In this document: piece by piece, positions 5,567 through 52,649 of the stretch
How the letters are laid out: the number at the start of each line of letters is the position of its first letter
How positions within the stretch are numbered: position 1 is the first letter of the stretch
Origin: Candidatus Magasanikiibacteriota bacterium
GTDB lineage: Bacteria; Patescibacteriota; Patescibacteriia; Magasanikbacterales; GWA2-37-8
Direction: 5' to 3'
Assembly: GCA_026396515.1 (NCBI GenBank)
Contig: JAPLWQ010000002.1
Span: 9,075-73,074 of the forward strand
Length of the DNA: 64,000 bases
Program-made: the position numbers and the translations under genes
Notes under the pieces: generated by a model
The model's input: only the letters and a program-made list of their open reading frames with translations
What the model was told of the DNA's origin: nothing
The model's database searches: none

Positions 5567-6631
5567 TTATGGCTGTAAAATATCTTCAGTCCGGCCGTCA
5601 ACAGAAATGATTACTGATTTGACGGTTGAAAATTGTTTAAGTGTTTCTTCTATTTGCGCTCTGATAGCCCCTACCCGGCAAGAACCGCCGAGGGCTTCTT
5701 CTATTTTCTTGTCAAAATCAACTTTTGCCACGTTATTTTCAATGGTCAGGCTTTGAATACCAACACCCATGTTTATGTTCGATAAATAACCGGCGGACTT
5801 TTCACTCTCGGTCGGACCTTTGAGCAACTCTTCTATCGCCGCGCGCCCTACCGCCGGTGTACTGGTTATAATGCGCTCAACAGCGTAAACCTTGCTGCAA
5901 TCAAGCATATTCGGATCTTTAACGGTATTATTGAAAAAAACACTTACCGTCTGGCCGAACACAATCGGATATATTTCTGATTTATCATTTTCCCTAAGAT
6001 CAGACGGATTATCATTTTTTAATACAAGCGTGCCGGTGGCTGTTTCCGGCGCATCAAATTTCAACACGGCTTCAAACGGTACGCTATTTGTGGTCATCCA
6101 CTCGCCTTTTGCCTGAGCCGGTGCAATAGCAACCTGCTTGCCGTTTGCATCATATATTTCCACGCGAGCGGTCGCTTCAAAATACCATGAGCCCGGCATT
6201 GTGCCATTTATTGTGAGAGATCCAAGAATCGGTTCTTTGAGCGTAGGAGACATTATGCTGGTTTCACGCGGTGTTTCACCTCCAACCGGACACTCGCCGC
6301 GAAACATCGCCCATTCTTCACATTGTTTACCGTCGGGGAATATGCACATTCCATATTCGCCCCCGTTTGCATCCTTTTTTATTTCAAGGTTTCCACCTTT
6401 TTCATCACAATTTACAGACGCCGGATTTGCCATACCGACATTATTTTGTTCTGTCGATGTCGCCCGCAACTCACAACCGGTTGTCGGCATTGCCGCGCTG
6501 GGATTGCCGTGCTTGACCCAAGCTCCATTTTGACAAAGCCAAGTATCTTCCGGGGTGGAAAACCTTAGGACCAAAAAAATAACGCCGACGAAAACGATTG
6601 CAGCCACCAGACCTGCTAATACTTTTGCCAT
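5567..6631 (-). CDS. membrane-anchored DUF333/GerMN-domain protein
   Basis: 354 aa. N-terminal TM. DUF333-like Cys motif (NPASVNCDEKGG ... GMCIFPDGKQCEEW). C-terminal GerMN-like domain. Confidence 0.5.
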   Translation of the reverse strand: MAKVLAGLVAAIVFVGVIFLVLRFSTPEDTWLCQNGAWVKHGNPSAAMPTTGCELRATSTEQNNVGMANPASVNCDEKGGNLEIKKDANGGEYGMCIFPDGKQCEEWAMFRGECPVGGETPRETSIMSPTLKEPILGSLTINGTMPGSWYFEATARVEIYDANGKQVAIAPAQAKGEWMTTNSVPFEAVLKFDAPETATGTLVLKNDNPSDLRENDKSEIYPIVFGQTVSVFFNNTVKDPNMLDCSKVYAVERIITSTPAVGRAAIEELLKGPTESEKSAGYLSNINMGVGIQSLTIENNVAKVDFDKKIEEALGGSCRVGAIRAQIEETLKQFSTVKSVIISVDGRTEDILQP

Positions 6632-6933
6632 ATATTATTATTAAAATTTGAACTGTCATCCTGAACGAAGCGAAGGATCTCTTCAAAGTTTTATGAAAGA
6701 TTCTTCATCCGCCAGCCGGCGGGACTCAGAATAACAATTGTTATTATAGCCATCGACCTGAAAAATGGCAAATATTGAAGACATCCGCACTCAAGCCACG
6801 CTACAACAAAAAATGTCACCCGAAGGCGGCATCTATATATGATATTTCTGTCCCAAATACAGGCCCTTTTTCCAAAAAACACTCGAGGTTATTTTTTACT
6901 CAATAACGAGGAGCCTCACGGGAAGTAAAGTCT

Positions 6934-18398: not shown

Positions 18399-18420
18399 TT
18401 TCTTCGATTACATTATATAT

Positions 18421-19122
18421 TTATTTTCTCAATATAAAAATATTATTTGCCGACAAGCTTTTAGATACTAGACAAATAAATCTATCAAAAACATTATCCC
18501 AGACAGGAACCGATTTTATTCGAATTATTTTTAATCCTTTTAGTTTTAACAAATCTTTTAATGCTCCGTACGTAAATATTCGGATATGTCCCTCTGTTTT
18601 ATTTAGCTGACCGAAGACTTTAATCATTCTCCCCAATTTAACTTCCGAGGAGTTTTCAAGAAAGAACGGTGATATTCCAAAAAGCAACATGATTCTATTT
18701 AGGTAATATCCCAGATTTGGGGTTGATATAATTATAATACTCTTCTCATGCATAAGTTCTTTTATCTCATCTAATAAACTATCAGGACTAAACAAATGCT
18801 CAAGTACTTCTCCGCAAATAATTACATCAAATTTTTCCTCCGTATATTTATCTGCTAATTTTTCTTCGTTTAGATTTATCTTTTGATAATCATCAATTTC
18901 AATATTGATTTTGTCATAGAAATCACACCCATAATATTTATCTTCATTTCGCTTATGTCTAAATATTTCACAATTATGCCCGCAACCGATGTCTAATATT
19001 TTTATTGGAAGAGAGAAATGTTCATTTTTATACTCCAAATATTGATTAATAATGTGTTTTAATCTAATATTCATCCCCGAGGCCGTCTGTCGTTTAGATA
19101 AAAATTCTTTTGTATTTTTCAT
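18421..19122 (-). CDS. class I SAM-dependent methyltransferase
   Basis: 233 aa. Motif I ILDIGCGHN, acidic motif DVIICGEVLEHL. Confidence 0.7.
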   Translation of the reverse strand: MKNTKEFLSKRQTASGMNIRLKHIINQYLEYKNEHFSLPIKILDIGCGHNCEIFRHKRNEDKYYGCDFYDKINIEIDDYQKINLNEEKLADKYTEEKFDVIICGEVLEHLFSPDSLLDEIKELMHEKSIIIISTPNLGYYLNRIMLLFGISPFFLENSSEVKLGRMIKVFGQLNKTEGHIRIFTYGALKDLLKLKGLKIIRIKSVPVWDNVFDRFICLVSKSLSANNIFILRK

Positions 19123-19133
19123 AATATTTGCAT

Positions 19134-20393
19134 TTATGAAATAGTTTTGATTATTTCTTGGAAAACTCTTTCGGAACTTTTTCCATCTTGATATCTATTA
19201 AAATCCCTATTAACTAACAATCGCCTCTGCTTATAGTTATCCACTCCATTTAAAATGTCCTGCACGTATTCTACTACTTCGTCCCAATCATTTGCCTTCG
19301 GTCCGGGAGTTACCGAATTGTAGTCGTAATAAAACCCACGCAACTTTTCGTATAGTACTAAATCAAACGGAGTAAATACTACTGGCCTATTTAATAGTAG
19401 AAAGTCAAAGTAAACACTTGAATAATCAGTTAATAAAATATCTGTTTTGGGCAATATTTCATAGATATCTTCAATCTGACTTAAGGATATGTTTTTTGCA
19501 TTTGCGAATAAATCAGCAATTTTTTTTGATTGCTTTTCATCGCAAGCGTGCAATTTGATGATAAAATTAGCATTGTTCCTTTCTAAAAAGGAATCGAACT
19601 TCTCCAAATTGAATTTGTACTGACCAAAAAAGTCGAAGTTTTTGTCATATTCCCTCCATGTCGGTAGATAGAATAGTAATTTTTTCTTGTTTTTACTTTC
19701 TATTTTTTCAAATAAAACATCATTCCTTGGCTGACCTGTAGTTTTAATATTTTTATGTCCAAAAATGGGTAGCTCTGCATAGATTTTTTTATTCTTATCG
19801 GTGGCACTAATTATCAAATCTGATTCTCTGCCTATATATTGCAGAATGATCCAGCTTATGATTCTTTTGTTAAAACTGGAAACCTTTAGTAATTCTTCGG
19901 AGGTTTTTCCATACCACGCTTGAATAATTTTATTTTTTAATTGAAATAAATAAGTAGCAATACTTGCATCTAAAGTTAGCCGTTTTAGGGGCGTTCCATG
20001 CCACAACTGAATAATTTTACTTTTTGAAGAAAATAAATAGGAGGTAGAGTTAACATCAAAAAATGATGTTGTGAGAACTAAAACTTTTGCCACAATACTA
20101 TAATATATTCCGTTTACTGAATAGAATTTGTAAACCTCAAAATTTTCTTTTCGTAATTTTTGAACTATATAGTCACTTTTTGTTAACCATATCGGACGGA
20201 TAATTTTTTCATTAACATTTACATATTCAAATAATGCTCTTGAATTATCGTTATATTTTGTCCCGTTGCCGGTACCAAAAATCCATATTTTGTTATTTTT
20301 TTTAACCAGTAAACCAACCAGATACAATGGCAAAAAAATAATTTTCAATAATAGTGCGGATAATTTGATAAAATAATTATTGCAATTTTTCAT
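19134..20393 (-). CDS. CDP-glycerol glycerophosphotransferase (TagB/TagF family)
   Basis: 419 aa. Conserved blocks HGTPLKRL, YLPTWREYD, ILLTDYSSVYFDF. Confidence 0.7.
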   Translation of the reverse strand: MKNCNNYFIKLSALLLKIIFLPLYLVGLLVKKNNKIWIFGTGNGTKYNDNSRALFEYVNVNEKIIRPIWLTKSDYIVQKLRKENFEVYKFYSVNGIYYSIVAKVLVLTTSFFDVNSTSYLFSSKSKIIQLWHGTPLKRLTLDASIATYLFQLKNKIIQAWYGKTSEELLKVSSFNKRIISWIILQYIGRESDLIISATDKNKKIYAELPIFGHKNIKTTGQPRNDVLFEKIESKNKKKLLFYLPTWREYDKNFDFFGQYKFNLEKFDSFLERNNANFIIKLHACDEKQSKKIADLFANAKNISLSQIEDIYEILPKTDILLTDYSSVYFDFLLLNRPVVFTPFDLVLYEKLRGFYYDYNSVTPGPKANDWDEVVEYVQDILNGVDNYKQRRLLVNRDFNRYQDGKSSERVFQEIIKTIS

Positions 20394-21099
20394 TTATTTT
20401 CAATTTATACAATATTTGATTTGCAAATAATGACGGGAGAAGATTTTCTAAAAATATGAATGGTTTATAGCCCAAACCACACGAAACAATTTTTAATTCA
20501 ACTTCAAAACCATGGTAATTCGACCAATAAATAAAATCTTTCAATGTCCAAAATCTGATATGCTCTTTTACATTCTGCTGGATCATAACAAGCGGAAATC
20601 TACCGAACAATAATCTTAGCCTATGAAGAAGAAACCCCGCATTCGGAATCGACACAAAAACTGATTTATCAAAATGATTCTTTATAGCTAGAATAACTTT
20701 TTCAGGATCCTGAATATGTTCCAAGACCTCTGTCAGTATTATGTAATCAAATTTCTTCTCGGCTAAAAAATTTGTAAAATCCTCAGCTAAAACATTCATC
20801 TCAAAAGCGTCAAATCCTTTTTTTTTAACATATTCAACCGCTTTTTTTGAAATATCTATGCCGACAATTTCTTTTGGTTTATTGTTTTTACTTAAATATT
20901 CAATGATTGTTCCGTCGCCGCAACCAATGTCCAGTATTTTGCTGTCTGGCTCGATATATGTAGAAATTATTTTGGCTCTGCCCAATGAAGGCGCATGAAA
21001 ACCTCTATTTTCCCAATACTCATCATAATCTTTAAAATTATTATCAAGAGGCATCGGCTTGAATATTCCTTGCAATAATATCGAAATTTTTTTTATCAT
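20377..21099 (-). CDS. class I SAM-dependent methyltransferase
   Basis: 240 aa. ILDIGCGDGT and DYIILTEVLEHI motifs. Overlaps neighbours by 17 nt and 4 nt, consistent with an operon. Confidence 0.65.
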   Translation of the reverse strand: MIKKISILLQGIFKPMPLDNNFKDYDEYWENRGFHAPSLGRAKIISTYIEPDSKILDIGCGDGTIIEYLSKNNKPKEIVGIDISKKAVEYVKKKGFDAFEMNVLAEDFTNFLAEKKFDYIILTEVLEHIQDPEKVILAIKNHFDKSVFVSIPNAGFLLHRLRLLFGRFPLVMIQQNVKEHIRFWTLKDFIYWSNYHGFEVELKIVSCGLGYKPFIFLENLLPSLFANQILYKLKINEKLQ

Positions 21100-21503
21100 A
21101 TTAGTTTTTTAACTTTGTCGATAATATTTTCTTTTAAACAGGTCGTTGATATATCGGGTGTTCTTTCGAGATATACAACCTCACAACACTTTTTCAACTC
21201 ATCAAATTTTCCCTCCCAATCGTTACCCATAACAAAGATGTCAATCTTTTTATTTTTTATATCCGCTACTTTCTGCTCCCAATTTTCTTCTGGGATGACT
21301 TCATCTACATACCTAATGGTCTCTAAAACGGCCTTTCTTTGCACATAAGGCAAGAAACAATCTTTATTTTTCATCCTGTTGAATTCGTCGGTTGATAAAC
21401 CCACAATCAAATAGTCACCAAGGTCTCTCGCTCTTTTGAGTAAGTTTATATGACCAACGTGCAATAGGTCATATGTACCATACGTAATCACAATTTTTTT
21501 CAT
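21096..21503 (-). CDS. tagD: glycerol-3-phosphate cytidylyltransferase
   Basis: 135 aa. Nucleotidyltransferase motif ITYGTYDLLHVGHINLLKRA and the short length typical of TagD/TarD. Confidence 0.8.
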   Translation of the reverse strand: MKKIVITYGTYDLLHVGHINLLKRARDLGDYLIVGLSTDEFNRMKNKDCFLPYVQRKAVLETIRYVDEVIPEENWEQKVADIKNKKIDIFVMGNDWEGKFDELKKCCEVVYLERTPDISTTCLKENIIDKVKKLI

Positions 21504-22198
21504 ATTTTTTTAAATACTAATTCCCAGCTATAATAACCAGGTATTGGTATTCTTATCTTTCTTAATATTCTAAATAATAGATTATTATATAGTTTTCTAT
21601 TTCTAATACCCAATCTTTTTACAAAAAAATCGATAATAGGAAATCTTTCGAGAGTTTTTTTATTTTCTAATAATTTAAATTTATTACGGTCAAATAAATC
21701 CAATAATTCGCAATCTTTTTTATATTCTCTTAAATGTGTTGGGTCTAAAACCCATTTCCCATTATTTCTATAAAAATACCATCCGTACCACTTTTTAAAT
21801 ACGGTCGAAATATAGATTATCCCATCTTTTTTTACAACTCTATGGATATTGTTCATCATCTTATTGTCGTCTATGTGTTCTATTACCATGGTAGATACAA
21901 AAAAATCAATGCTATTGTTTTCAATAGTTTTCATCTCTTCTGCATTATCAACCATTGCAGTTATGCCGACGTCAATTTTGCGTACAAGATCGATTCTGTT
22001 TTTCGACAAATCTATAGCAAAAACTTTCTTATCAATCAAATATTTATTTTTAATTAAAGCACTTAACAAATTGCCATCGCCACAACCGCAATCTAAAAAA
22101 GTAGTGAAATTATGATTTAGTAAATACTTTTTTAATAATTCTGAGATGCAATCAGAATAATATTGTGGGGCAATCTTTGAATATTCTTCTATATTCAT
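21500..22198 (-). CDS. class I SAM-dependent methyltransferase
   Basis: 232 aa. FLDCGCGDGN and DFFVSTMVIEHI motifs. Confidence 0.65.
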   Translation of the reverse strand: MNIEEYSKIAPQYYSDCISELLKKYLLNHNFTTFLDCGCGDGNLLSALIKNKYLIDKKVFAIDLSKNRIDLVRKIDVGITAMVDNAEEMKTIENNSIDFFVSTMVIEHIDDNKMMNNIHRVVKKDGIIYISTVFKKWYGWYFYRNNGKWVLDPTHLREYKKDCELLDLFDRNKFKLLENKKTLERFPIIDFFVKRLGIRNRKLYNNLLFRILRKIRIPIPGYYSWELVFKKI

Positions 22199-23040
22199 AT
22201 TTTCTTAATTTTATTTACTAAATACCCGGCTCCGCCAAAGGCAAATTTGAAAAAATTGTACATAATAAATCCGCTGCCTAACATGGGATGATAGATAAAC
22301 TTTTTCCAGTTTTTAAAATACACACTCCTGAAAAATCCCAATTGCTTTTTTGATTCGCTTATATTTTCTTGTTTGTACTTTACAAAATCCTTTCCATAGT
22401 CGTAATATTTTTTCATGTGCTTCCAAAAATTAGTCGGCTCCCCCAAATGCAAGGCTTCCGCCTCAATAAATCCAGTTTTAAAACCGCCTCTATTTAGTTT
22501 ATTTTGAAAATCATAATCCTCTCCGGCCGTTATTTTTTCATTAAATTCGCCGATTTTTTCGTAAACTTCTTTTCGTACGAATCTTGCGGAAGAATGGGTA
22601 ATGTCGTACTTATACATATCCACCTCAAATTTTCTTATATGCGCAATCCAGGAAATTCTCACATCAGGAGAATTGTGAACCACCACTGCGCCAAATCCTT
22701 CGTTCGCTTTTTTTACGCATTGATCAATGACTTCCTTGTCTAAAATAAAATCTGAATCTACTTTATAAACATATTCACCGTTAGAATTTTTAACTCCAAA
22801 ATTTACTTGCGCGGATCTTTCCGGTCCCCAATTGAGTAGTTGAAAGTTATAAAGTTTATAAAGTTCTAAAGTTGACTGTTTAAAAGCCTCGGCGATTTCT
22901 TTTGTACTGTCTACACTATTATTATCCACTACAATAATTTCTATATTTTTGTATGTCTGATTTTTTAAAGATTCCAAACATTTTTCAAGAAATTCACTTG
23001 AATTTTTTGTCGGAATTATCACTGAAACTAAACAACTCAT
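22195..23040 (-). CDS. family 2 glycosyltransferase
   Basis: 281 aa. VSVIIPTKNSSEFLEKCLESLKNQTY ... IEIIVVDNNSVDST and a DxD block. Confidence 0.75.
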   Translation of the reverse strand: MSCLVSVIIPTKNSSEFLEKCLESLKNQTYKNIEIIVVDNNSVDSTKEIAEAFKQSTLELYKLYNFQLLNWGPERSAQVNFGVKNSNGEYVYKVDSDFILDKEVIDQCVKKANEGFGAVVVHNSPDVRISWIAHIRKFEVDMYKYDITHSSARFVRKEVYEKIGEFNEKITAGEDYDFQNKLNRGGFKTGFIEAEALHLGEPTNFWKHMKKYYDYGKDFVKYKQENISESKKQLGFFRSVYFKNWKKFIYHPMLGSGFIMYNFFKFAFGGAGYLVNKIKKI

Positions 23041-23052
23041 ACTTTATAAACT

Positions 23053-24195
23053 TTATAACTTTATGAACTTTATAAACTCTTCGTAACTATTTTTAAAATT
23101 AATCTCCTTACTCCATTCCCAGGCATTAATTCTTAGACTCTTATATTTTTCTTCATCACTTAACAAATTAACTATATTAACCGCTAAATCTTCTGGGGTA
23201 TTTTCCTTGCAGATTAGTCCTGTTTCGTTATTCATGACTGCATCGCGCAGACCATCAACGTTATAAACAATGGCCGGCGTACCCTGACTATTTGCTTCTG
23301 TGACAACTAATCCCCAACCCTCTTTAACCGAAGTAACTGCGATTAGATGTGATTTTTGCAATAATTCAATTTTCTTTTCTTTACTTACTTTACCAAGGTA
23401 TTCCATGGAATCTGCAAAGGCACTGACCTTCATCATCTTCAATACCTTAGCTCCATAGGTACCCTCGCTAGAGCCGGCGATAATCAGTCGCAAGTCAGGC
23501 ATCACTGCTTTTGCAATTTCAAAGGCCTTAATGATATGATCCGTTCTTTTCATGGCCTTAATTGCCCCGAGGCTTAATATTGTCGGGTCTTTATACTTTA
23601 TAACTTCATAACTTTCTAACTCTTTAACTGGCTCAATCTCAATGCCTTCGCTGATTATTTTTATGTTTTCATCTTTAAAGCCATATTTCAATAAATCTTT
23701 TTTGGTGCTGGCGGAAACGGTAATAACTTTTCTGTCAGAGAGTAACCATAGATAGACCGGCTCCAACAGATATCCAAGTAAACTAAGCGGGAAGAACATC
23801 TGATAAAACCATATTTCTCGACAGAGTTGGTGGATAAAGAGAATATTTTTTACCTCACCCCGACCCTCTCCTTGCAAAGGAGAGGGGGAACAAACATAAA
23901 ACTTCGCAAAGAATGGGATTGTATTTACTTCGTCAATTACCAAATCCGGCCAACCGACTAAATTTTTTTTGTAGTATTTATAGGCCCGCCAATAAACTGT
24001 CCATTTATTGCCCAGTCGTATGACTTTGTACCCATCGATTATTTCTTCGTTTAAAGCCCCCTGAAAGCCCGCCACGAGTAGTATCAGCTCATTACCGTCT
24101 TCTACCAGCCTTTTTGCCAAAGATTCGTTGACTAACTCCGCACCGCCGGCTAACGGATTTTTCCTGTCTTTCCATGTTAGCCATAGGATTTTCAT
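23053..24195 (-). CDS. family 4 (GT-B) glycosyltransferase carrying an in-frame palindromic-element insertion
   Basis: 380 aa. C-terminal GT4 signature (KEGWGLVVTEANSQGTPAIVYNVDGLRDAV). N-domain contains an atypical 14-aa segment CSPSPLQGEGRGEV encoded by a CCTCACCCCGACCCTCTCCTTGCAAAGGAGAGGGGG element at about 23853-23888. Confidence 0.7.
   Translation of the reverse strand: MKILWLTWKDRKNPLAGGAELVNESLAKRLVEDGNELILLVAGFQGALNEEIIDGYKVIRLGNKWTVYWRAYKYYKKNLVGWPDLVIDEVNTIPFFAKFYVCSPSPLQGEGRGEVKNILFIHQLCREIWFYQMFFPLSLLGYLLEPVYLWLLSDRKVITVSASTKKDLLKYGFKDENIKIISEGIEIEPVKELESYEVIKYKDPTILSLGAIKAMKRTDHIIKAFEIAKAVMPDLRLIIAGSSEGTYGAKVLKMMKVSAFADSMEYLGKVSKEKKIELLQKSHLIAVTSVKEGWGLVVTEANSQGTPAIVYNVDGLRDAVMNNETGLICKENTPEDLAVNIVNLLSDEEKYKSLRINAWEWSKEINFKNSYEEFIKFIKL
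23853..23888. repeat. palindromic element copy (CCCTCTCCTT-GCA-AAGGAGAGGG) inside the GT4 CDS
   Basis: Perfect 10-bp inverted repeat flanked by CCTCACCCCGA. Same element family as the copies at 31581-31883, 42496-42585, 36678-36711 and 37268-37301. Confidence 0.65.
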
Positions 24196-29523: not shown

Positions 29524-29787
29524 GCGGAAGGGGTGGGCGCTCCGGCGTTCAAACCCACCACGCGAGCCAAATTATTGGCTCGCTCTTTACACTCACTTCA
29601 TTCGCGGAAGGGGTGGGATTTGGCTTCGTCTCTCGCTTGCTTCCGCTCGCTCGGACTAGCCACCGCCTCGCGGTCGCGCTCGCCCGCCTGCGTCGCGCGA
29701 CATCGCTCCGGCGTTCAAACCCACCACGCGAGCCAAATTATTGGCTCGCTCCTTACACTCACTTCATTCGCGGAAGGGGTGGGATTT
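29524..29787. repeat. tandem partial duplications of the tRNA-Ser 3' end and its flank
   Basis: An ~82-nt unit occurs at about 29541-29622 and again at 29706-29787, where it is fused to the intact tRNA. The unit is TCCGGCGTTCAAACCCACCACGCGAGCCAAATTATTGGCTCGCTCYTTACACTCACTTCATTCGCGGAAGGGGTGGGATTTG. A third copy of the terminal GCGGAAGGGGTGGG lies at 29524-29537. The copies are separated by a 78-nt segment of about 68% GC. Confidence 0.6.
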
Positions 29788-29861
29788 GAACCCACGGTCC
29801 GGTTTAGAGCCGAACGACACGTTAGCACCGTGTTGCTTTAGACCAGCTCAGCCACCCTTCC
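29771..29861 (-). tRNA. tRNA-Ser (anticodon GCU), type II with long variable arm
   Basis: Minus-strand sequence GGAAGGGTGGCTGAGCTGGTCTAAAGCAACACGGTGCTAACGTGTCGTTCGGCTCTAAACCGGACCGTGGGTTCAAATCCCACCCCTTCCG. It folds as 7-bp acceptor, 3-bp D-stem, anticodon stem ACACG/CGTGT with loop GUGCUAA (U33, GCU, A37), 6-bp variable arm, T-arm GTGGG-TTCAAAT-CCCAC, discriminator G. CCA is not encoded. Confidence 0.8.
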
Positions 29862-29981
29862 AATGTTTACCCTGTAAATTTGTGCTATAATTATAGCAAT
29901 AAATTGGCCGAAAGTCAACCCTGTTAAACGCCCTTCGGGCTATTCACCACCGGCGAATTATCTAACAGGTAAAGAAATACT

Positions 29982-31571
29982 ATGCTTCAAAAAATCGCAA
30001 AAATTGCCTTAATCCTTGCCGGATATTTCCTGGTTATTTCATTTGTTTCCAATACTTTTGACGGCGATTTCGGCTGGCACTTACGTTTCGGCCGCGATGC
30101 TTTTGCCGGCAATTTTCAATATTTAGACACCTATACATGGCCTCACTTCGGACTGTCATGGACAAACCACGAGTGGGGCGGAGATTTGTTGTTCTGGCTG
30201 TTATATTCGTCTTTCGGCTATTTTTCTCTGGTGCTTCTAATCTCAGCCGCAATATGGGGTGCATTTTTGCTGGCGCAAAAAATATTTTTTAAAAAAATCA
30301 GCATCAGCGGAATAATACTTTCTCTTGCCGGCATTGCCTGCCTAAAATTTTTATTGGGTCTTCGTCTGGCATTCTTAGTATTAATGCTGTTTACGCTTCT
30401 CTGGCTAACTTTGGAAAAGTTGCCGAAAATAAAATCATATTTTCTTTGGCCGCCGCTTCTGTGGCTATGGTCGGCTCTCCATGGCAGCTGGGCACTCGGT
30501 TTTATTATTATCAATATATATACATTCGGCAATATTATATATTTAATGATAAAAAATAAATTTCCCCGCTTGGCCGGCAAAGACACGGGTTGGACCGGTA
30601 AAACCATTCTCGCTTCATTTTTCTGGCAGGCAATCTCGGCGCTGTTTCTGCTCTTCAATCCCTATGGCACAAAAATATGGACAGAGGTCGGCGAATATTT
30701 TACATCCGGATATTTTAAAACAATAATTACCGAGTGGATTCCGAGCTATGCCTATCCTGTCTATGTTTGGCCGCTTATTATCGCGGCATTTACCGCGGTA
30801 TTCGCCGTCTGGGGCTGGCTTACTAAAAAGGTAACATTAGCGCAATTGCTTTTTTTCTTCGCCATTTTTTATTCTGCCTGGCAATACAAACGCAACAATG
30901 TCTATCTTGTACTAATCTGCATACCGGCGCTGACTATAATATTTGGCTTGGCAAAAGAAAAAATTATTTCCGCATTTAACTTAAAAACGACAGTGCAGGA
31001 AAGAATAGCGCTTGTTTCCGCGGCACTAGCAATAATGCTAATTGCGCTATTCGCGCCTTCAGTCAGAATAAATAGCGACATCTGGAAAGACCGCGAACTA
31101 TTATTGCGCTATCCATTTCCATACGATGCGGTTGAATTTCTGACCAAAGAAACAGTTGGCCGGCAAATTTATCTGTTTAATGAATTTCATTGGGGTGGAT
31201 ACTTGAACTGGACGATGCCTGATACCCTCATATATTTTGACGGGCGCGGCACGGCCACCTGGAAATACAGCAATGATGAAACACGCCTGGAGCGGTACAG
31301 AAAAATAAAGTACCAGGCCGGCGGTTTTAATGAGCTCGAACAGGGTCCGGCAGAATATGTGATACTTAGCCAATATTATGCCAGCTACAAAAAACCGAAT
31401 ATGATTAACAAAATTATTTTCGGAGAAAAAGGCATTGCCGAAGCGTTGGTGCCGGATCCGCCTCAATTGGAAAAAATGCTGAGAAAAAGCGGAAGCTGGC
31501 AGATAATTTTCGAGGATAAAATCGCGATTGTTTGGAAAAGAGTCAATAAAACCTCACCCACTACCAAATAA
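29982..31571 (+). CDS. polytopic membrane protein, GT-C-like putative glycosyltransferase
   Basis: 529 aa. About 12 TM helices in the first ~350 aa, then a soluble C-terminal domain. Aromatic-rich loops (HEWGGDLLFW). Confidence 0.4.
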   Translation: MLQKIAKIALILAGYFLVISFVSNTFDGDFGWHLRFGRDAFAGNFQYLDTYTWPHFGLSWTNHEWGGDLLFWLLYSSFGYFSLVLLISAAIWGAFLLAQKIFFKKISISGIILSLAGIACLKFLLGLRLAFLVLMLFTLLWLTLEKLPKIKSYFLWPPLLWLWSALHGSWALGFIIINIYTFGNIIYLMIKNKFPRLAGKDTGWTGKTILASFFWQAISALFLLFNPYGTKIWTEVGEYFTSGYFKTIITEWIPSYAYPVYVWPLIIAAFTAVFAVWGWLTKKVTLAQLLFFFAIFYSAWQYKRNNVYLVLICIPALTIIFGLAKEKIISAFNLKTTVQERIALVSAALAIMLIALFAPSVRINSDIWKDRELLLRYPFPYDAVEFLTKETVGRQIYLFNEFHWGGYLNWTMPDTLIYFDGRGTATWKYSNDETRLERYRKIKYQAGGFNELEQGPAEYVILSQYYASYKKPNMINKIIFGEKGIAEALVPDPPQLEKMLRKSGSWQIIFEDKIAIVWKRVNKTSPTTK

Positions 31572-31580
31572 GGACTAGCC

Positions 31581-31883
31581 GACTCCACCCCAACCCTCCT
31601 CTTATCAAGAGGAGGGAGGCAACGCTTCCTTCTCCTTTGCATCGATTAAACCTCACCCCAACCCTCTCCTTATTAAGGAGAGGGAGGTGACGCTTCCCCT
31701 CTCTTACAAAGAGAGGGGTTAGGGGAGAGTCATCAACTCCACCCCAACCCTCCTCTTGTTAAGAGGAGGGAGGCGACGCTTCCCCTCTTTTACAAAGAGA
31801 GGGGTTAGGGGAGAGTTTGTTAAGAGGAGGGAGGTGACGCTTCCCCTCTCTTACAAAGAGAGGGGTTAGGGGAGAGTCAGATG
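31581..31883. repeat. tandem array (about 3.5 units of about 80 bp) of double-hairpin palindromic elements
   Basis: Unit is CTCCACCCCAACCCTCCTCTT-NNN-AAGAGGAGGGAGGYGACGCTTCCCCTCTCTTACAAAGAGAGGGGTTAGGGGAGAGT. Each unit has two perfect 10-11-bp inverted repeats. No unique spacers, so not a CRISPR array. Lies between convergent genes 29982..31571 and 31907..32608. Confidence 0.75.
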
Positions 31884-31906
31884 TTTCCTCTTATTAAGGG
31901 AAACTA

Positions 31907-32608
31907 TCAAATAGCTCTGGCCAAAGTAATCGCCCAAACTGTTTTTGAGCCACCGATTTTCAGCACTTTGGCACACTCATTTAATGTCGCGCCGGTAGTA
32001 TAGACATCATCAACTAAAATAACGGAATTAGGCACTGCGTCGCTTTTTACAGCAAAAGCGCCGTCCACATTTATTTCCCTTTCTTCTTTTGTCAGTTTTG
32101 CCTGTTGAGCGGTGGCGCGCAGCCGTGACAGGATACTATCATTAACTTCATACTTTCTTTGCGGAAAGATTTTTTTTATTTCCTGATAAATTATATCCGC
32201 CAATATTTTGGCTTGGTTAAATCCCCTCTCTCTTTCACGGCGGGGGAAAAGCGGTACGGGCAAGATCACACCTTCTTCAGGAATAGGAATACCCGATAAA
32301 TACCGCCCGATCAGCATTTGCCAGACCGATTGAATGTCATGCGCGTATTTATATTTAAAATCGCGTATCAATTTCGCTGACGGCTCGGCCTCCGTATAAC
32401 TCATTAAAGCCGAGACGCCGTCTAAATTGAAAAATCCGCGGCAGCCAAGGCAAAGCTCACCGCTGTTTTGTTTTCCACAGCCCGGACATCTTAGCACCGG
32501 AGATATTTTTTGTTTTTCAAAACACTTTTCACACCACCAGACGCCTTCTTTTCCGCATTCGGCGCAATAAACCGGAAATAGAATATCTTTAACCAGCTTT
32601 ATTATCAT
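31907..32608 (-). CDS. comF: ComF family protein (phosphoribosyltransferase-domain competence protein)
   Basis: N-terminal 4-Cys zinc finger (CAECGK ... CEKC ... CPGCGK ... CLGC) and C-terminal PRTase motif VILVDDVYTTGATL. Start taken at MIIKLVKD (32606-32608), just after the upstream terminator hairpin. Confidence 0.7.
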   Translation of the reverse strand: MIIKLVKDILFPVYCAECGKEGVWWCEKCFEKQKISPVLRCPGCGKQNSGELCLGCRGFFNLDGVSALMSYTEAEPSAKLIRDFKYKYAHDIQSVWQMLIGRYLSGIPIPEEGVILPVPLFPRRERERGFNQAKILADIIYQEIKKIFPQRKYEVNDSILSRLRATAQQAKLTKEEREINVDGAFAVKSDAVPNSVILVDDVYTTGATLNECAKVLKIGGSKTVWAITLARAI

Positions 32609-32612
32609 ATTA

Positions 32613-32640
32613 CAAAGACGCCCTTGCGGGCGTCTTAAAA
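32613..32640 (-). terminator. terminator hairpin at the end of the T4SS-like operon
   Basis: AAGACGCCCTTGCGGGCGTCTT: perfect 9-bp stem, loop TTGC. Followed on the minus-strand RNA by UUUGUAAUAU. Sits between the stop at 32652 and the comF ATG. Confidence 0.5.
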
Positions 32641-32651
32641 AATCATTTATG

Positions 32652-33248
32652 CTATTTAACCCATTCAAATTTATCCACTAGCCAAATGCCTTTTGTTTCC
32701 ACCAGCCAAACCTTTGCCTTTTCATTCGTTTGCGTTGTGCTTGAACCCTTGGTAGTTATTCGCTGGGCAGACACTTCTACCATGGCTTTTCCGCTGGCGT
32801 ATTCAACGACATCAGACGCCACCGCATTGGTGGTTACACCGAGAAACACCGCCGGTTTGCCTGTGCCAATCTTTTTTTCAAGTTCAGACCAATAACTCAT
32901 TGTCACCAATGTCTCCACTTCGCGGATATTAGCAAAATCACTATCCGAAGAATATGTGCCATAGCGCTCGGTGAATATTTTTGCCATTTGCTTCGCCCCG
33001 TTTTTTAGCGCTTCTTCCGTAGTAAGCGGTTTCACCGGTATTCCAGTCGGTACGACAACCGGCGGCGGGGTGATCTGTACAGGAAAATTAGTTGAATCAA
33101 TCTGACCGGTCTGGTCTTCAGCCGGCGGCTGTTCAACCGGCGGCGCCGCTTTTTGGCGGACAAAAACAATAATACCGACGCTGATTCCCAGTATAATCAA
33201 AACAATCAAACTGATAAAAATAAACAGACGGGAGCGAAGTGTGGTCAT
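32652..33248 (-). CDS. bitopic membrane protein, possible VirB8-like T4SS component
   Basis: 198 aa. N-terminal TM, Pro-rich linker, about 110-aa globular C-terminal domain. The VirB8-like assignment rests on architecture and operon context only. Confidence 0.3.
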   Translation of the reverse strand: MTTLRSRLFIFISLIVLIILGISVGIIVFVRQKAAPPVEQPPAEDQTGQIDSTNFPVQITPPPVVVPTGIPVKPLTTEEALKNGAKQMAKIFTERYGTYSSDSDFANIREVETLVTMSYWSELEKKIGTGKPAVFLGVTTNAVASDVVEYASGKAMVEVSAQRITTKGSSTTQTNEKAKVWLVETKGIWLVDKFEWVK

Positions 33249-33289
33249 ATGTTTTCAAATATTTATGCTGCCGGTCCGCGCCGGCGCCA

Positions 33290-35158
33290 TTATTTATTTT
33301 CTGCAACAAATTCTTTTTTTGCTTTTTCAATGGCCAGAAGCTGTTCGGGGTTGGTAGTGACTATCTGATCTTCGGTATATGATGCCACCACTTTAATGGC
33401 GGCGTGTTTCCGGCCGGCAAAAAATATTCCTTCGCCTACTCCGGACTCAAGCAACAAATATTTTTCACTATCGGTCAATACAAATACTTTCTGAATCAGA
33501 TCAATAGACGCCGGCGACTGACGCAATAATAATTGCAGGGCCGAGTTGGTGACGATCGCCTGCCCATATTGCGATTTCAAAAAGTCGTTCACATCCTGAG
33601 TGATAGTGGTAACGCCGAGATAATATTTACGGCAGCGTTTCACCAGAGCATAAATGAAACGCGCCGAATCTTCGTGCATCATCAGCCACCAGGCCTCGTC
33701 GATCACCAATATTCTTTTCTTGCGCTCCGAGCGCACCACATTCCAAATATAGTTCACAATGGTATATATGGCAATCGGCCGAAGTTCATCTTCCAAATCC
33801 CGCACCGAATAAATGACCAGCTGATTTTTCATATCAACATTGGTCGGCGAGTTGAACAAGCCGCTGAAAGTGCCTTCAGTATATTTTTGCAATTTTAAGA
33901 CAAGCTCTTCCGACCCTTGCATTCCCTCCAATATCTCCACCAAATCCTGCATAATCGGCGGCTTAACCGTGGCCAAATCGGCATCGGGCGTAATATCCTT
34001 CTTGGCGTAGGTTTCAATCAATGCACGGTCAATAATAGCGTCTTGTTCAACGGTCAGACCGCCAAGCATGATGCGCAGGAGCCCTTTCACAGTAATAACC
34101 GCTCCGCGGATCACGTCTTCGGTGGATATTTCCATACCCATCGGCCGGGGCAGATCAAATGGATTAATTTTAGCTTCTGATGAAAGAGAAATGTTAACAT
34201 AAGTACCGCCGACAGCGTCGCTTAAATGCTTATATTCCATTTCCGGGTCGATAACAATCACATCCACGCCCATCATCATGGTACGCAGAATTTCCAGCTT
34301 AATGGCATAACTTTTCCCGGCGCCGGAAGTGGCGAACACCACCATATTGGCGTTTTGCAGGGAAAACCGTTCAAATAAAATCAAGCTGTTGTTGTGGCGG
34401 TTAATGCCGTAAAGTATGCCGTCATCAGATGTCAGCTCGGCGGATATAAAAGGAAACGACGCGGCAATCGGAGAGCTGTTCATGTTGAAGGCAACATACA
34501 ATTCATCATTACATAAAGGCAAAGTGGAATTATAGCCCTGCTCTGATTGATACAAAACCTTTCGGGTCATAATCAGCTTGCCGCCGAAAATATTTTCAAT
34601 ATCCTCGGTGGTCTGGTCCAATTCTTCTTTTTTTCGCGCATAAATTGTGGCGTAAAAACAGAATTGAAAAAAATGTTCGGTGCCCTGCGTTAAATTATCC
34701 CGCAATTGCTCAATATCGCGCAAAGCTGTTTCGCGGATCGGATCGCGCGGTGCGCCTTTTTCCGTATCGGCATTAATCTGCGCTTCCAAGGCGCCGACTT
34801 TATTTTTTAATTGTTTTAAAATGACGGCTGATTTTACCGGATAGAAAAACATGGCCAAATCCATGGTGACGGAAAGATTGATAACGGGCGAGGCCCAGCC
34901 GATGGAAATGTAGCGCGGATAGGCGGTGATAAAAAGCGTGCGGCAAAAAGCATCACCAAGCTGAACAAAACTTGACTCCACGCGAAAAGCGGAAGGCGCC
35001 ACCAAATCGCGGATGGACACCACGCCTTCACGATATATTTTTTCCTCTTCAAGCGTCACCAGCTCTTCAGATGCTTTTCTCTTAAGCTCACTGGTTTCGG
35101 TCTGCAGGCGGCTGGTGGCCTGTTTTTGTTCTTTAATCGCCGATGGTTTAAATGCCAT
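33290..35158 (-). CDS. virB4: VirB4/TrbE/CagE-family type IV secretion ATPase (C-terminal 622-aa part)
   Basis: Walker A FATSGAGKSYAI, Walker B RILVIDEAWWLM, and VirB4-type N-proximal block (LGDAFCRTLFITAYPRYISIGW). Confidence 0.75.
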   Translation of the reverse strand: MAFKPSAIKEQKQATSRLQTETSELKRKASEELVTLEEEKIYREGVVSIRDLVAPSAFRVESSFVQLGDAFCRTLFITAYPRYISIGWASPVINLSVTMDLAMFFYPVKSAVILKQLKNKVGALEAQINADTEKGAPRDPIRETALRDIEQLRDNLTQGTEHFFQFCFYATIYARKKEELDQTTEDIENIFGGKLIMTRKVLYQSEQGYNSTLPLCNDELYVAFNMNSSPIAASFPFISAELTSDDGILYGINRHNNSLILFERFSLQNANMVVFATSGAGKSYAIKLEILRTMMMGVDVIVIDPEMEYKHLSDAVGGTYVNISLSSEAKINPFDLPRPMGMEISTEDVIRGAVITVKGLLRIMLGGLTVEQDAIIDRALIETYAKKDITPDADLATVKPPIMQDLVEILEGMQGSEELVLKLQKYTEGTFSGLFNSPTNVDMKNQLVIYSVRDLEDELRPIAIYTIVNYIWNVVRSERKKRILVIDEAWWLMMHEDSARFIYALVKRCRKYYLGVTTITQDVNDFLKSQYGQAIVTNSALQLLLRQSPASIDLIQKVFVLTDSEKYLLLESGVGEGIFFAGRKHAAIKVVASYTEDQIVTTNPEQLLAIEKAKKEFVAENK

Positions 35159-35869: not shown

Positions 35870-36334
35870 CTAATCTTCTGCCTGATAATAACCGCCTGTA
35901 TTAACTGTTAAAGACAGATCGCGAATCCGGCTGTATGAAAGGCGCGGAATCGGTTTCGCCGCTTCCGGAATCGTTACCACGCCCTCGGCCTGAAGGCGCT
36001 TTATTTCGCCGGTGTTATAAATTTTATTCCAAATGCGCAAAGCCGGCCGGCGCAGCGTCTGTACTATGTTTAATAAAAAATAGTGGAATGCCTGCCCGTT
36101 GATTTTTACAAAGGCGATGATGAGCGAACCGCCTCCGATTACGGCGGTTAAAAAAATGAATAAAGCAAAATCGGCCAATTTGAAGGTGACAAATAATACC
36201 AGGCCGGCCACCAGCAAAATAACAAACTGCCGGGCGGTAATCGGACCGAATATTTTATCCTCCACATCAATAAATTGCGGGACAACAAATTGCGTTTGCA
36301 TAGCTATATTACAACAATTCTTTTTCCATCTCAA
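35870..36334 (-). CDS. small two-TM membrane protein, VirB3/PrgI-like candidate
   Basis: 154 aa with two hydrophobic helices, positioned directly upstream of virB4 as VirB3 homologues usually are. Confidence 0.35.
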   Translation of the reverse strand: MRWKKNCCNIAMQTQFVVPQFIDVEDKIFGPITARQFVILLVAGLVLFVTFKLADFALFIFLTAVIGGGSLIIAFVKINGQAFHYFLLNIVQTLRRPALRIWNKIYNTGEIKRLQAEGVVTIPEAAKPIPRLSYSRIRDLSLTVNTGGYYQAED

Positions 36335-37505
36335 TTATCGCCTGAATCTCGGGTATCTGTATTCTGGCGGTATCGGCCGATAATATTTCTGATAATTTTT
36401 TCTTTGTATTCAGCGCTTCGGTAACGGCTCCGGAATAATCAATAAACAGCGGGCTTCGGCGCCAGGCGGCTAAGCCGTCGAGATACCAGACATATGATTC
36501 TTCCCGCAAATTGAGAAATTTTTGTTTGAGACGAGACGCGGCTTCGGCCGGATTCGATGATAGACGGCGAAAATCGGTTAAAGACATGAACTCTATTTCA
36601 TCAATCGGGCCCAGATTTGACGGTCTTGCCGGCGTGATATCGCGGACAATCGGTCGGACCGGCGGAGCTGAAGTTTCCCTATCCTTACTAAGGAGAGGGC
36701 TGGGGTGAGGTAAACCTGTCCGCATTGTCTGTGGCGCTCTGACAAATGTATTTACCGGGGAAGATGTTGAAGGCAGGACATCTTCACTCTCTTTCATTAA
36801 TGCTGTCGGCATGCCCATTGGTTTAACCAACGGCTTGCCCACTGTTGCCGCCGGCGGAATTTCTTCTTCCAATAAAGAAGTAGCGTCATTTTTTCCAAAA
36901 CGGGCGGTAGGCGCCGGAGCCGCCGGTTTTGCCGGCATCGGAGTTTTACGATCTTCAATTATTTTCAGAACGGGAGGTACTGGTTTGGGCATCGACGGCT
37001 TAATGATTACTGCCGGTTTAATTTCAGGTTTTGACTGAACAATTTCCGCTGCCAGGGCTTTAATTCCCCCCGGATTCAAAGCAATTTTTTTGGCCGCGGC
37101 CAACTTTGGCGGTCGCGCTATTGGTTGAATTTTTGGCGGTAATACTGGCTTTGCCGGCACATTTTCTGTTTCAATGATTTCTGACGCAAGCAATTTTATG
37201 GCAGCCAAATTCGGCACGGACTTTTTTAGAACCGGTCTTGACGGCTGAACCGGCGGAGCTGATACCTCCCTCTCCTTACTAAGGAGAGGGTTGGGGTGAG
37301 GTAAGCCAGTCCGCATCGTCTGCGGAGCAGGCGCCGGTGTAACCGGGGTAATAGCCGGCTTAAGAGCGGGCGCAGGCTTATTTTTGCGCGCCTTAAAATC
37401 GGCCAAAGAAATTTTTTCAATGGTTCCGTCCGGTTTTTTAACAGTAATCATGGTGTTATCCGCCATATCAAACGCTCCATTTAAATTTATTATCCGCTTC
37501 GTCAA
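36309..37505 (-). CDS. proline-rich repeat protein of the T4SS-like operon (contains two in-frame palindromic elements)
   Basis: 398 aa, extended P/A/K-rich sequence. An internal ~30-aa duplication (QTMRTGLPHPNPLLSKEREVSAPPVQP and QTMRTGLPHPSPLLSKDRETSAPPVRP) is encoded by palindromic element copies at about 36678-36711 and 37268-37301. The true start may be MADNTMITV at about 37466, which would remove the overlap with the upstream gene. Confidence 0.45.
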   Translation of the reverse strand: MTKRIINLNGAFDMADNTMITVKKPDGTIEKISLADFKARKNKPAPALKPAITPVTPAPAPQTMRTGLPHPNPLLSKEREVSAPPVQPSRPVLKKSVPNLAAIKLLASEIIETENVPAKPVLPPKIQPIARPPKLAAAKKIALNPGGIKALAAEIVQSKPEIKPAVIIKPSMPKPVPPVLKIIEDRKTPMPAKPAAPAPTARFGKNDATSLLEEEIPPAATVGKPLVKPMGMPTALMKESEDVLPSTSSPVNTFVRAPQTMRTGLPHPSPLLSKDRETSAPPVRPIVRDITPARPSNLGPIDEIEFMSLTDFRRLSSNPAEAASRLKQKFLNLREESYVWYLDGLAAWRRSPLFIDYSGAVTEALNTKKKLSEILSADTARIQIPEIQAIIEMEKELL

Positions 37506-51818: not shown

Positions 51819-52649
51819 TTATTTCTTTTTTCCGGACATTATTTCATTGATAAATTGAGCCGTAGCCGTAGTATTGGCCGTATTTGTGGCCGTAGTGATG
51901 GAGCTCATTATCGTACTGGAAGAAAATATTTCCGTTGCCATTTTTATTAAATCATCATCGGATATTTTATCAAGCACTGATTGTTCAACTCCTGCCTCGA
52001 GAAGTATTAGGCGCACCTGTTCAGGGCTGGAAATAAGCTCTTCAAGAGAGGTGACGGCAGTCATGTCGCCGGCCGGCGTACTGGAAGAAAAAATTTCAGC
52101 CGCCATCTGAACCAATTCTTCATCTGATATTTTATCAATCACGGATTGCTCAACGCCTGCGTTGAGCAGTACGGTGCGCATCTGTTCCGGACTGGAAACA
52201 AGCTCTTCAATCGTGGTCGGCATTTTGTAATCGAACAAAGTTGGCAGATCGGGTTTGCCGGCAACGGTTGAAGCACTCTCTCCTACGTTGCCAATACAAT
52301 TTTTTCCTTCAGCGCAATTCGGATTTTTCCCCTGGTCAATTTCTTGTTTATCTGTCAACCCATCGGAATCGGAATCTGCCAAATACGGGCTGGTGGTAAA
52401 AATATACAATTCATCATAGTCACTTAAGCCATCCATATCGGTATCGCGGTAGCGCAGTGCTTCTGGAGTGTTCACTTCCTGGCCGATCATCGGCGGAATG
52501 GATGTGTTCAGAGCGAACGGGCTGTATAGAGTATTGCGCATTTGGATCAAGCCGAGCGTAACTGCGAGCAAAACAAAAGCTGACAGCAAAACCAAACCGA
52601 TCTTCTGTTCTTTGGACAGTCGTAACTTTTCATCAGCCATATATACCAC
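51819..52649 (-). CDS. membrane-anchored protein with thrombospondin-type-3-like Ca-binding repeats and a duplicated C-terminal module
   Basis: 276 aa. N-terminal TM. DTDMDGLSDYDELY ... DSDSDGLTDKQEIDQG (DxDxDGxxDxxE repeats). Two copies of an ~45-aa module. Putative promoter TTGGCT-16-TGATATAAT about 40-70 nt upstream. Confidence 0.5.
   Translation of the reverse strand: MVYMADEKLRLSKEQKIGLVLLSAFVLLAVTLGLIQMRNTLYSPFALNTSIPPMIGQEVNTPEALRYRDTDMDGLSDYDELYIFTTSPYLADSDSDGLTDKQEIDQGKNPNCAEGKNCIGNVGESASTVAGKPDLPTLFDYKMPTTIEELVSSPEQMRTVLLNAGVEQSVIDKISDEELVQMAAEIFSSSTPAGDMTAVTSLEELISSPEQVRLILLEAGVEQSVLDKISDDDLIKMATEIFSSSTIMSSITTATNTANTTATAQFINEIMSGKKK

Follow-up and report, generated by a model that had tools for sequence, protein, structure and literature searches.

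How does a tandem array of hairpin repeats come to stand where two genes converge in a compact bacterial genome, and does it serve those genes or only itself? The question is raised by a 64,000-nt stretch of the 328-kb contig JAPLWQ010000002.1 (hereafter the window, 64 kb), which comes from a metagenome-assembled genome (MAG) of Candidatus Magasanikbacteria, a member of the candidate phyla radiation (CPR, or Patescibacteria). In this window, between the end of a gene for a GT-C-like membrane protein and a comF gene on the opposite strand, 297 nt (31582–31878) consist of four tandem units of 68, 86, 81 and 61 nt, equivalent to about 3.5 inverted doublets of one hairpin-forming element of about 41 nt. 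The array is probably a cluster of the repetitive extragenic palindromic (REP) and REP doublet (REPIN) type, resembling the bacterial interspersed mosaic elements (BIMEs), and built from a small selfish hairpin repeat.

The tandem array proposed by a sequence-only reading of this DNA is evident by direct reading and is recovered by Tandem Repeats Finder, which reports a period of 86 (1.9 copies, 31654–31816, 90% matches) and a period of 61 (2.0 copies, 31756–31877, 96% matches), and by a repeat search of the region, which returns three direct copies of 82 nt, three of 48 nt and short perfect inverted repeats. The family pattern matches five times in the window vs 0.00 expected (100 shuffles), and the whole array folds at −177/−172 kcal/mol (z about −9.8) on both strands, one giant hairpin being possible. 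The same reading assigned two perfect 10–11-bp hairpins to every unit, which is a slight exaggeration: five stems are perfect at 10–11 bp and another carries a single mismatch, that of hairpin B in U3, while U1 and U4 keep one intact hairpin each.

Strong predicted structure in a repetitive region may also be expected of a structured non-coding RNA gene or of a degenerate CRISPR-like array. No Rfam family, however, reaches its gathering score in the window or in 14 further loci, the permissive matches being generic long-hairpin (microRNA-precursor) noise, and no promoter-like site is placed to drive the array; the copies occur in both orientations and inside coding sequences (CDSs), the units abut with no unique spacers, and no Cas domains or cas genes are present in the window. 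The earlier statement that this is not CRISPR is therefore upheld, and an RNA gene or CRISPR remnant is scarcely credible.

When hairpin B is reverse-complemented it aligns with hairpin A (alignment A1), the two being diverged copies of one element of about 41 nt, so that each unit is an inverted doublet, a feature that the sequence-only reading missed. The element comprises an unpaired C-rich head of about 12 nt (ACCYCACCCCAA in type A, CTCTCCCCTAA in type B), a 10-bp stem in which one arm is pure pyrimidine and the other pure purine, a free loop of 3–4 nt and, after the stem, a short AGG/AAG tail; this polypyrimidine/polypurine (polyY/polyR) design has no stop codon in five of the six reading frames. 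Subtypes A and B lie tail-to-tail within a unit across the linker GGYGACGCTT, and adjacent units meet head-to-head via TCATCAAC, in the order A> GGYGACGCTT <B TCATCAAC A>. The doublet of about 86 nt has two folds, either a Y-shape with a head:head outer stem and two hairpins or a long imperfect hairpin, with −43 to −49 kcal/mol and z of −4.4 to −5.3 for the units; such folds are given by U2, U3 and the doublet at the orthologous locus L134 (loci collected for comparison are designated L). This inverted A/B architecture makes the unit REPIN- or BIME-like, and the array a tandem REPIN-type cluster.

The orthologous junctions point to how the array arose. In two relatives, L129 and L142, whose proteins are 63% and 57% identical to the GT-C protein of the window, the gene ends overlap and the element is absent; in a third, represented by two independent assemblies (L134 and L135, 57% identity), the spacer of 77 nt is exactly one doublet in the opposite orientation; in the window the spacer of 335 nt holds about 3.5 doublets. 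Junctions with none, none, one and about 3.5 doublets point to an insertion that is specific to the lineage, after which copies were duplicated and deleted locally. The L134 doublet, whose head CCCCTAACCCC supplies the stop codon of the upstream gene, is about 90% identical to U3, vs 57% identity of the flanking proteins. Together with the dispersal of the same element of about 41 nt through the window, these junctions bear out the suggestion that the locus is a proliferation hotspot of a palindromic family.

The dispersal was established with a covariance model (R1) built from 25 diverse copies (alignment A4), with which the window was searched without filters: seven A-type and four B-type copies were found, six in the array and five elsewhere. 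Three of these 11 copies lie in long open frames, as do 36 of 132 distinct copies overall (frames of at least 200 codons), and the five of the six frames that are used are exactly the stop-free ones. One such insertion can be compared with its empty sites. The GT4 glycosyltransferase of the window has 380 aa, vs typically 364–370 aa in orthologs, and nine close orthologs go directly from FFAKFYV to KEKNILFVHQLCR where the window protein has an element-encoded peptide (alignment A2), that is, 12 additional codons at one loop or, at the DNA level, 42 nt in the place of two codons. In other orthologs the same loop holds KSPLLSKEGPGVV, from the same family, or inserts of the VIPAKAGIQ and HPVKS...KQFNGV types, from other families; since proteins P0011 and P0045 carry another member of the subfamilies, read in a different frame, the GT4 insertions are independent.

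Two GT4 loops are hotspots for several unrelated inserts of palindromic origin in other Patescibacteria (P0005, P0011, P0018, P0030, P0034, P0037, P0041, P0045, P0054, P0073 and P0105; alignment A2), with inserts of the VIPAKAGIQ type (which resembles a CGTC-type REP), the HPVKS..KQFNGV type, the CHSRE..GGNLF type and one of 42 aa (STSRPDTVSPQ...). Judged from these alignments, the in-frame colonisation of CPR genes by small palindromes seems common. Two further copies in the window lie in one CDS for a 398-aa protein and are both read as LPHP(S/N)PLLSK(D/E)RE; at the position of one of them, the L129 ortholog of this protein (6110–6739) carries a decayed A-GCGACGC-B doublet, so that some copies in CDSs are old and retained. 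The 398-aa protein is Pro/Ala-rich and belongs to a PrgI/TraC/TraG-like (type IV secretion-like) cluster, and each of its copies is inside an internal repeat of about 80 nt (APQTMRTGLPHP.PLLSK.RE..APPV.P).

Within the array, the units differ in ways that bear on its later history. U4 corresponds to a full unit from which 25 nt, comprising the A head and 5′ arm, have been lost; over the 61 nt in common with U3 there are two differing sites, at both of which U4 equals U2, and against U2 there are three, at all of which U4 equals U3, so that U4 is a U3/U2 mosaic. The mosaic and the truncated units argue for local duplication or unequal exchange followed by hairpin-associated deletions, and not for repeated independent transposition; the expansion and contraction suspected from the variable unit boundaries is thus supported, U1 and U4 being deletion derivatives. 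Beyond both edges of the array, possible remnants (Table 1) suggest, with low confidence and by sequence resemblance, older decayed copies; the C-termini of the upstream-gene orthologs vary, which bears on the left one.

The array or its copy number might be a collapse or expansion artefact of a short-read MAG, the finding named beforehand as one that would overturn it. A 53-nt exact repeat (31680–31732 = 31827–31879) has a 147-nt loop between its copies, which an assembly graph could pass repeatedly; the source is indeed a MAG, and independent contigs built with k = 31 end inside the array. These two Logan short-read contigs (SRR20698648 and SRR20698649) nevertheless reproduce the window from 29759 to 31709 and from 31850 to 33557 at 100% identity, by which both array edges and the repeat content are independently confirmed, and they break exactly at the borders of the sole non-unique 31-mers, the two copies of the 53-nt repeat, as predicted. 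This longest exact repeat is, moreover, shorter than an ordinary read, the units can be told apart by their substitutions, and both independent assemblies of a relative place the same doublet at this site. An artefact is very improbable on this evidence. The middle (31710–31849) and the copy number are without independent confirmation and, because the loop can be traversed more than once, the true number may be higher, the internal count being a lower bound.

The position of the array invites a functional explanation, namely a cis-regulatory element selected as a multi-hairpin bidirectional terminator or as a 3′-end RNA stabiliser for the converging genes. The array begins 10 nt past the upstream stop codon and is separated by 28 nt from the comF stop codon, either strand forms hairpins of extreme stability, the same gene in a more distant ortholog (L130) is directly followed by a conventional GC-hairpin terminator, and effects of REPs on mRNA stability and termination have been reported (PMC3733652). 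No family hairpin, however, is followed by a U-tract on either strand, and a terminator scan finds three sites vs 1.3 expected, none of them family hairpins, so that nothing supports a dedicated role as terminator. In L129 and L142, two of the three closest relatives examined, the gene ends overlap without any spacer and the element is dispensable, and the third manages with one doublet; the same element is translated in-frame at three CDS positions in the window, and the units are decaying, B1 and A4 being truncated. The terminator or stability role put forward for the array finds no support in these observations as the main reading and is unlikely, while an incidental effect on the 3′ ends of the converging transcripts is plausible.

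The wider family indicates what is conserved in the element. A metagenome scan finds at least 120 stretches with the family, on host contigs of 29–69% GC, and in these the head is conserved beyond the searched pattern. The core of about 40 nt recurs at about 85–95% identity in CPR bacteria, cyanobacteria and Alpha-, Gamma- and Delta-proteobacteria; named hosts are Candidatus Komeilibacteria (one MAG among GTDB genomes, found with a search pattern one base off the window's own copies), Candidatus Magasanikbacteria (by NCBI protein names) and, in PLSDB, Methylobacterium, Rahnella, Moraxella, Photobacterium (17 places in one replicon), Aeromonas, Pelobacter, Nostoc, Dolichospermum, Calothrix and Pseudanabaena. 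The family copies in these named replicons (PLSDB H1–H31) are always unannotated. The family element has no match in 5,426 E. coli genomes, and neither the element pattern in IMG/VR nor unit U2 in phage records gives any match, so that nothing points to carriage by phages.

The forms found include singlets, inverted doublets very like the window unit (for example L060, L027 and L014), extended single hairpins, three-way forms and occasional arrays (for example L106), and 858 kb of collected loci hold 117 singlets, 89 doublets and a few larger clusters. Eleven clusters in CPR loci have a gene context that is convergent in three, unidirectional in six, divergent in one and unclassifiable in one. 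Three free stem positions are complementary in 124 of 129 distinct copies vs 55.7 expected, with 41 different loops; across the stem 99.2% of the cells are paired, and both sides have changed in 18 cells vs 6.1 in shuffles, a value reached by none of 500. Pairing rather than sequence is maintained at the variable stem positions, which supports selection on pairing.

A G-quadruplex was rejected as the reason for the conservation of the head, since its motif (GGGGAGGGTTGGGGTGGGG, G-rich strand), carried by 66 of the 70 CCCTCCCCTT variants, is missing from all 47 CPR-type CCCTCTCCTT copies and from the array. A DNA platform for a bound protein has also to be considered, either for gyrase or a nucleoid protein (as in E. 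coli BIME-2 and BIME-1) or as a DNA-uptake-type signal. E. coli BIMEs bind IHF, DNA gyrase or Pol I, and a comparable role here would account for two subtypes that alternate as in a BIME and are joined by two conserved linkers, for a head conserved more strongly than pairing needs and for the proximity of comF and the type IV secretion-like cluster. The site is, however, empty in two of the three closest relatives, the family is present in phyla with unrelated competence systems, and about 11 clustered copies per 64 kb are unlike uptake sequences; a binding platform is very unlikely. The integron attC and DNA-uptake-sequence readings were dropped, the R-box consensus being off by one position and the copy distribution a misfit.

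A REP/REPIN-type cluster thus remains the best explanation, and the family behaves as mobile selfish DNA, judging from near-identical copies at unrelated sites, presence or absence at orthologous sites and in-frame persistence. As the junctions document, the history began when this lineage gained a doublet between two genes whose 3′ ends overlap in close relatives. Unequal recombination or replication slippage between direct repeats would then have amplified it locally, and hairpin-prone deletions would have trimmed the array, with the loss of one B1 arm and of the A4 head and 5′ arm. The mover may be a trans-acting transposase that recognises single-strand hairpins, as the REP-associated tyrosine transposases (RAYTs) and IS200-IS605 enzymes do, which is the leading guess, or the copying may be recombinational, by gene conversion or template switching. 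Effects on the flanking genes (a 3′ exonuclease block, an RNA polymerase roadblock or double-stranded RNA) would be a by-product and not the reason for the array.

Several observations weigh against this explanation. No RAYT, Y1_Tnp or other transposase domain is found in the main open reading frames (ORFs) of the window (at least 100 aa and un-nested in a longer ORF), and a phmmer search with E. coli RayT (NC_000913) against 3,425 ORF segments, taken from element-bearing loci that total 0.87 Mb, finds none, a search of low sensitivity with one seed and partial genomes. The GTAG tag recognised by RAYTs is missing, no GTAG/CTAC standing beside the stem in the aligned copies, and the element misfits the CGTC families as well. 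At the GT4 insertion site, examined at the DNA level, there is neither a target-site duplication nor a defined target, and mobility is deduced from comparative patterns alone. An identity of about 85–95% in the core across phyla is also atypical of REPs, which are usually lineage-specific, and this conservation hints at a constraint or a transfer route beyond the REP/REPIN model.

In a broader, more tentative proposal, the array would be a local bloom of a third, unnamed pan-bacterial REP-like superfamily, defined by a C-rich head and a 10-bp polyY/polyR hairpin with no GTAG/CGTC tag and a conserved core of about 40 nt, and either spread independently of RAYTs or held constant by a universal host factor. 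The freedom from stop codons in five of six frames would, under this proposal, allow the element to colonise the coding genes of streamlined genomes. The proposal is possible but doubtful. The family fits neither described REP superfamily and is apparently unnamed, and its description was not found in the literature on REPs in CPR bacteria and on palindromic elements in Patescibacteria, while literature searches by sequence yielded unrelated eukaryotic papers only.

The array itself adds little, tandem inverted REP doublets between convergent genes being textbook REP/BIME/REPIN behaviour. More is learned from the fact that a compact, gene-dense CPR genome tolerates and amplifies selfish hairpin repeats, even in its genes, which bears on the label "streamlined". 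Annotation is affected, since the element inserts 12–14 low-complexity residues such as SPSPLQGEGRGEV and LPHPNPLLSKERE, and at arrays of this kind short-read assemblies are interrupted, as the Logan contigs show; the arrays are also natural variable-number markers for strain tracking. If the family picture holds, the question becomes how a hairpin of 40 nt stays constant throughout the bacteria and by what means it moves.

Table 1. Coordinates of the array, its parts, the dispersed copies and the flanking genes in the window (R1, score with covariance model R1; E, E-value).
Feature	Position	Strand	Length	Description
Unit U1	31582–31649		68 nt	Hairpin A whole; hairpin B decayed and truncated (3′ half gone)
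Unit U2	31650–31735		86 nt	Hairpins A and B both perfect
Unit U3	31736–31816		81 nt	Hairpin A perfect; hairpin B with one mismatch
Unit U4	31817–31877		61 nt	Head and 5′ arm of A missing; B perfect
Half-element A1	31582–31622	+		Head ACTCCACCCCAA, 10-bp hairpin CCCTCCTCTT/AAGAGGAGGG, AGGCAA; perfect stem; R1 57.5 bits, E 2.7e-15
Linker and decayed B1	31623–31649			5′ arm CCTTCTCCTT retained; 3′ arm and head gone; from unit alignment A3 and sequence
Half-element A2	31650–31690	+		Perfect 11-bp stem CCCTCTCCTTA/TAAGGAGAGGG; R1 64.3 bits, E 2.6e-17
Half-element B2	31690–31731	-		Inverted diverged subtype, head CTCTCCCCTAA, stem CCCCTCTCTT; R1 21.2 bits, E 1.6e-4; alignment A1
Half-element A3	31736–31776	+		R1 56.3 bits
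Half-element B3	31776–31817	-		One stem mismatch; R1 22.1 bits
A4 remnant	31817–31836	+		Loop and 3′ arm only (TTGTTAAGAGGAGGGAGG); 25-nt head and 5′ arm deleted; from period-61 tandem copy and unit comparison
Half-element B4	31837–31878	-		R1 21.2 bits
Possible decayed hairpin remnant GTTTCCTCTTATTAAGGGAAAC	31881–31902			Right edge; D3 family member at 92%; small hairpin fold; low confidence
Possible old remnant (AAACCTCACCC...AATAAGGA)	31543–31575			Last codons and stop of upstream gene; D4 repeat, 88% to 31642–31658; low confidence
Copy in GT4 glycosyltransferase CDS (23053–24195, -)	23852–23892	+		Translated SPSPLQGEGRGEV; R1 57.5 bits; absent from most orthologs
Copy in 398-aa CDS (36309–37505, -)	36671–36711	-		Translated LPHPSPLLSKDRE; R1 38.6 bits; decayed doublet at same ortholog site
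Second copy in 398-aa CDS (36309–37505, -)	37262–37302	-		Translated LPHPNPLLSKERE; R1 63.1 bits
Head-to-head doublet (B-type, 12-nt spacer, A-type)	42496–42586			79 nt upstream of ORF 42666–43229; R1 41.2 bits (A), 12.8 bits (B)
Upstream flank, polytopic membrane protein, GT-C fold	29982–31571	+	529 aa	About 10 hydrophobic segments; AlphaFold2 model; Foldseek
Downstream flank, ComF-family	31907–32668	-		Sub-threshold Pfam Pribosyltran and DZR_2 (double zinc ribbon); NCBI MCX6781645.1 (ComF family protein); conserved synteny

The identity of the two convergent flanks agrees with what had been proposed for them, a GT-C-like protein on the forward strand and comF on the reverse. Pfam and PDB sequence searches with the upstream protein give no match; its AlphaFold model (predicted local distance difference test 91, predicted template modelling score 0.91) is matched in Foldseek by GT-C-fold glycosyltransferases only (STT3/AglB, DPY19, AftA/AftD and ArnT), with E down to 6e-7. 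The downstream assignment follows the NCBI name, and the order of the GT-C gene and then, on the opposite strand, comF, a 198-aa gene, TraG-like, TraC-like and PrgI genes is conserved. The longest comF ORF has 253 aa with a TTG start vs 233 aa in the NCBI record (MCX6781645.1), and the start codon is uncertain.

Other features of the window may be recorded. The dispersed head-to-head doublet is located within about 1.9 kb that form an unusually long stretch without a long reverse-strand ORF, and the ORF downstream of it carries GACACC/GACACGGACACC repeats (42804–42896). A tRNA-Ser(GCT) gene (29770–29861, reverse strand) is adjoined by tRNA 3′-end sequence GCGGAAGGGGTGGG, present three times (window 29524–29861), and a segment of about 80 nt with a perfect hairpin (GCGAGCCAA-ATTA-TTGGCTCGC) occurs twice (29539–29620 and 29705–29785); these repeats resemble scars of att sites or the products of partial tRNA duplication. 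From about 16000 to 24000, a low-GC island (0.30–0.34 vs about 0.45 elsewhere) holds cell-envelope glycan genes, with a GT-C AftD-like protein, a CDP-glycerol glycerophosphotransferase, several methyltransferases, a cytidylyltransferase and GT2/GT4 enzymes, and may be a horizontally acquired cluster. A 165-nt tandem repeat (51912–52210, 1.8 copies, 79% matches) is found in a 276-aa ORF (CDS 51819–52649) that has a bacterial TSP3 repeat match and adjoins a 2,783-aa protein (43461–51812), in which the sole match is a CBM_4_9 domain.

Among known systems, REPINs are close in organisation. The generic features of a REP, a short palindrome with an unpaired end at many sites, are present (41 nt, a 10-bp stem, a 12-nt head and 11 copies per 64 kb), and so is the inverted REP pair able to form one hairpin that defines a REPIN (alignments A1 and A3; folds of U2, U3 and L134). 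As in REPINs, a short palindromic pair is inverted across a short spacer and forms a larger hairpin, the doublet is the commonest organised form, clusters are tandem near-identical doublets and singlets resemble decayed doublets (PMC3116915); tandem REPIN clusters are known in Pseudomonas fluorescens SBW25 (Bertels & Rainey 2011, PMC3116915). In contrast to REPINs, the element lacks a GTAG tag and no RAYT was found nearby or in the sequences searched; it lives in a CPR bacterium and not in a proteobacterium, its core is shared between phyla where REPIN populations are lineage-specific, and many copies are intragenic.

The mosaic organisation of BIMEs, with alternating REPs and few conserved linkers, is also present, and the head-to-head junction recurs at the dispersed doublet. 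As in E. coli BIMEs, two subtypes alternate in orientation (A/B here, Y/Z there) with two distinct conserved linkers, the repeat number varies and the array lies at gene 3′ ends; the sequence is unrelated.

With the GTAG and CGTC REPs the element shares a size of 20–40 nt, an unpaired tag at one end, dimers that are often heterodimeric, copies near the two 3′ ends where ORFs converge, stop donation and intragenic copies (PMC3733652); indeed, stop-codon donation, HH/TT heterodimers, intragenic REPs and REPs that lie no more than 20 bp from both 3′ ends of a convergent ORF pair have all been described (Di Nocera et al. 2013, PMC3733652). The CGTC REPs have a terminal CGTC (or TGTC/CCTC) tag, an 8–9-bp stem starting with A/T, a 4–5-nt loop and a CCA tail, and have no known transposase either (PMC3733652). 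The element of the window differs in its C-rich head of about 12 nt in place of a tag, its 10-bp pyrimidine/purine stem starting with CCC, its loop of 3–4 nt and its lack of a CCA tail. Membership of the CGTC group, suggested by GACG in the linker, was ruled out by the architecture of stem, loop and tail; the GACG/CGTC motif is confined to the doublet linker of Magasanikbacteria-type copies.

The Rickettsia palindromic elements (RPEs) provide a parallel for the copies in genes, as in-frame palindromes in the coding genes of a reduced genome that add a short peptide at permissive loops and are inserted independently in orthologs. Classical RPE-1 elements are roughly 100–150 bp long and are not known outside Rickettsia. 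RPE-1 has been set apart as "longer palindromic insertions", and RPE-4 and RPE-6 have been equated with CGTC REPs (PMC3733652). The present element differs from RPEs in its length of about 41 nt, its unrelated sequence, its CPR host and its spread across phyla.

In heterocyst-forming cyanobacteria only, Elhai and colleagues reportedly described in 2008 small dispersed repeats (SDRs) of under 30–40 nt, hairpin-capable, nested in repeats and genes and with no known transposase. The likeness is that of very small nested hairpin repeats, here nested in a unit of about 95 nt resembling a miniature inverted-repeat transposable element (MITE). On cyanobacteria-like contigs the family hairpin is the centre of this conserved MITE-like unit, bounded by inverted repeats ATATAGCAATCC...GGATTGCTATAT (L048, 4612–4716), which is found also in L009, L017, L018, L021, L024, L025, L033, L038, L040, L043, L056, L059, L065, L067, L076, L090, L102 and L126; in L025, a HEARO RNA is about 750 nt from a family copy. 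For the window element itself a MITE was rejected on the GT4 insertion, where two codons are replaced and no target site is duplicated.

In summary, the array falls outside the GTAG REPs, the CGTC REPs, the RAYT-associated REPINs (as far as testable), the strict RPEs, the MITEs, the intrinsic terminators and CRISPR, and finds its best place among clusters of the REP/REPIN/BIME type.

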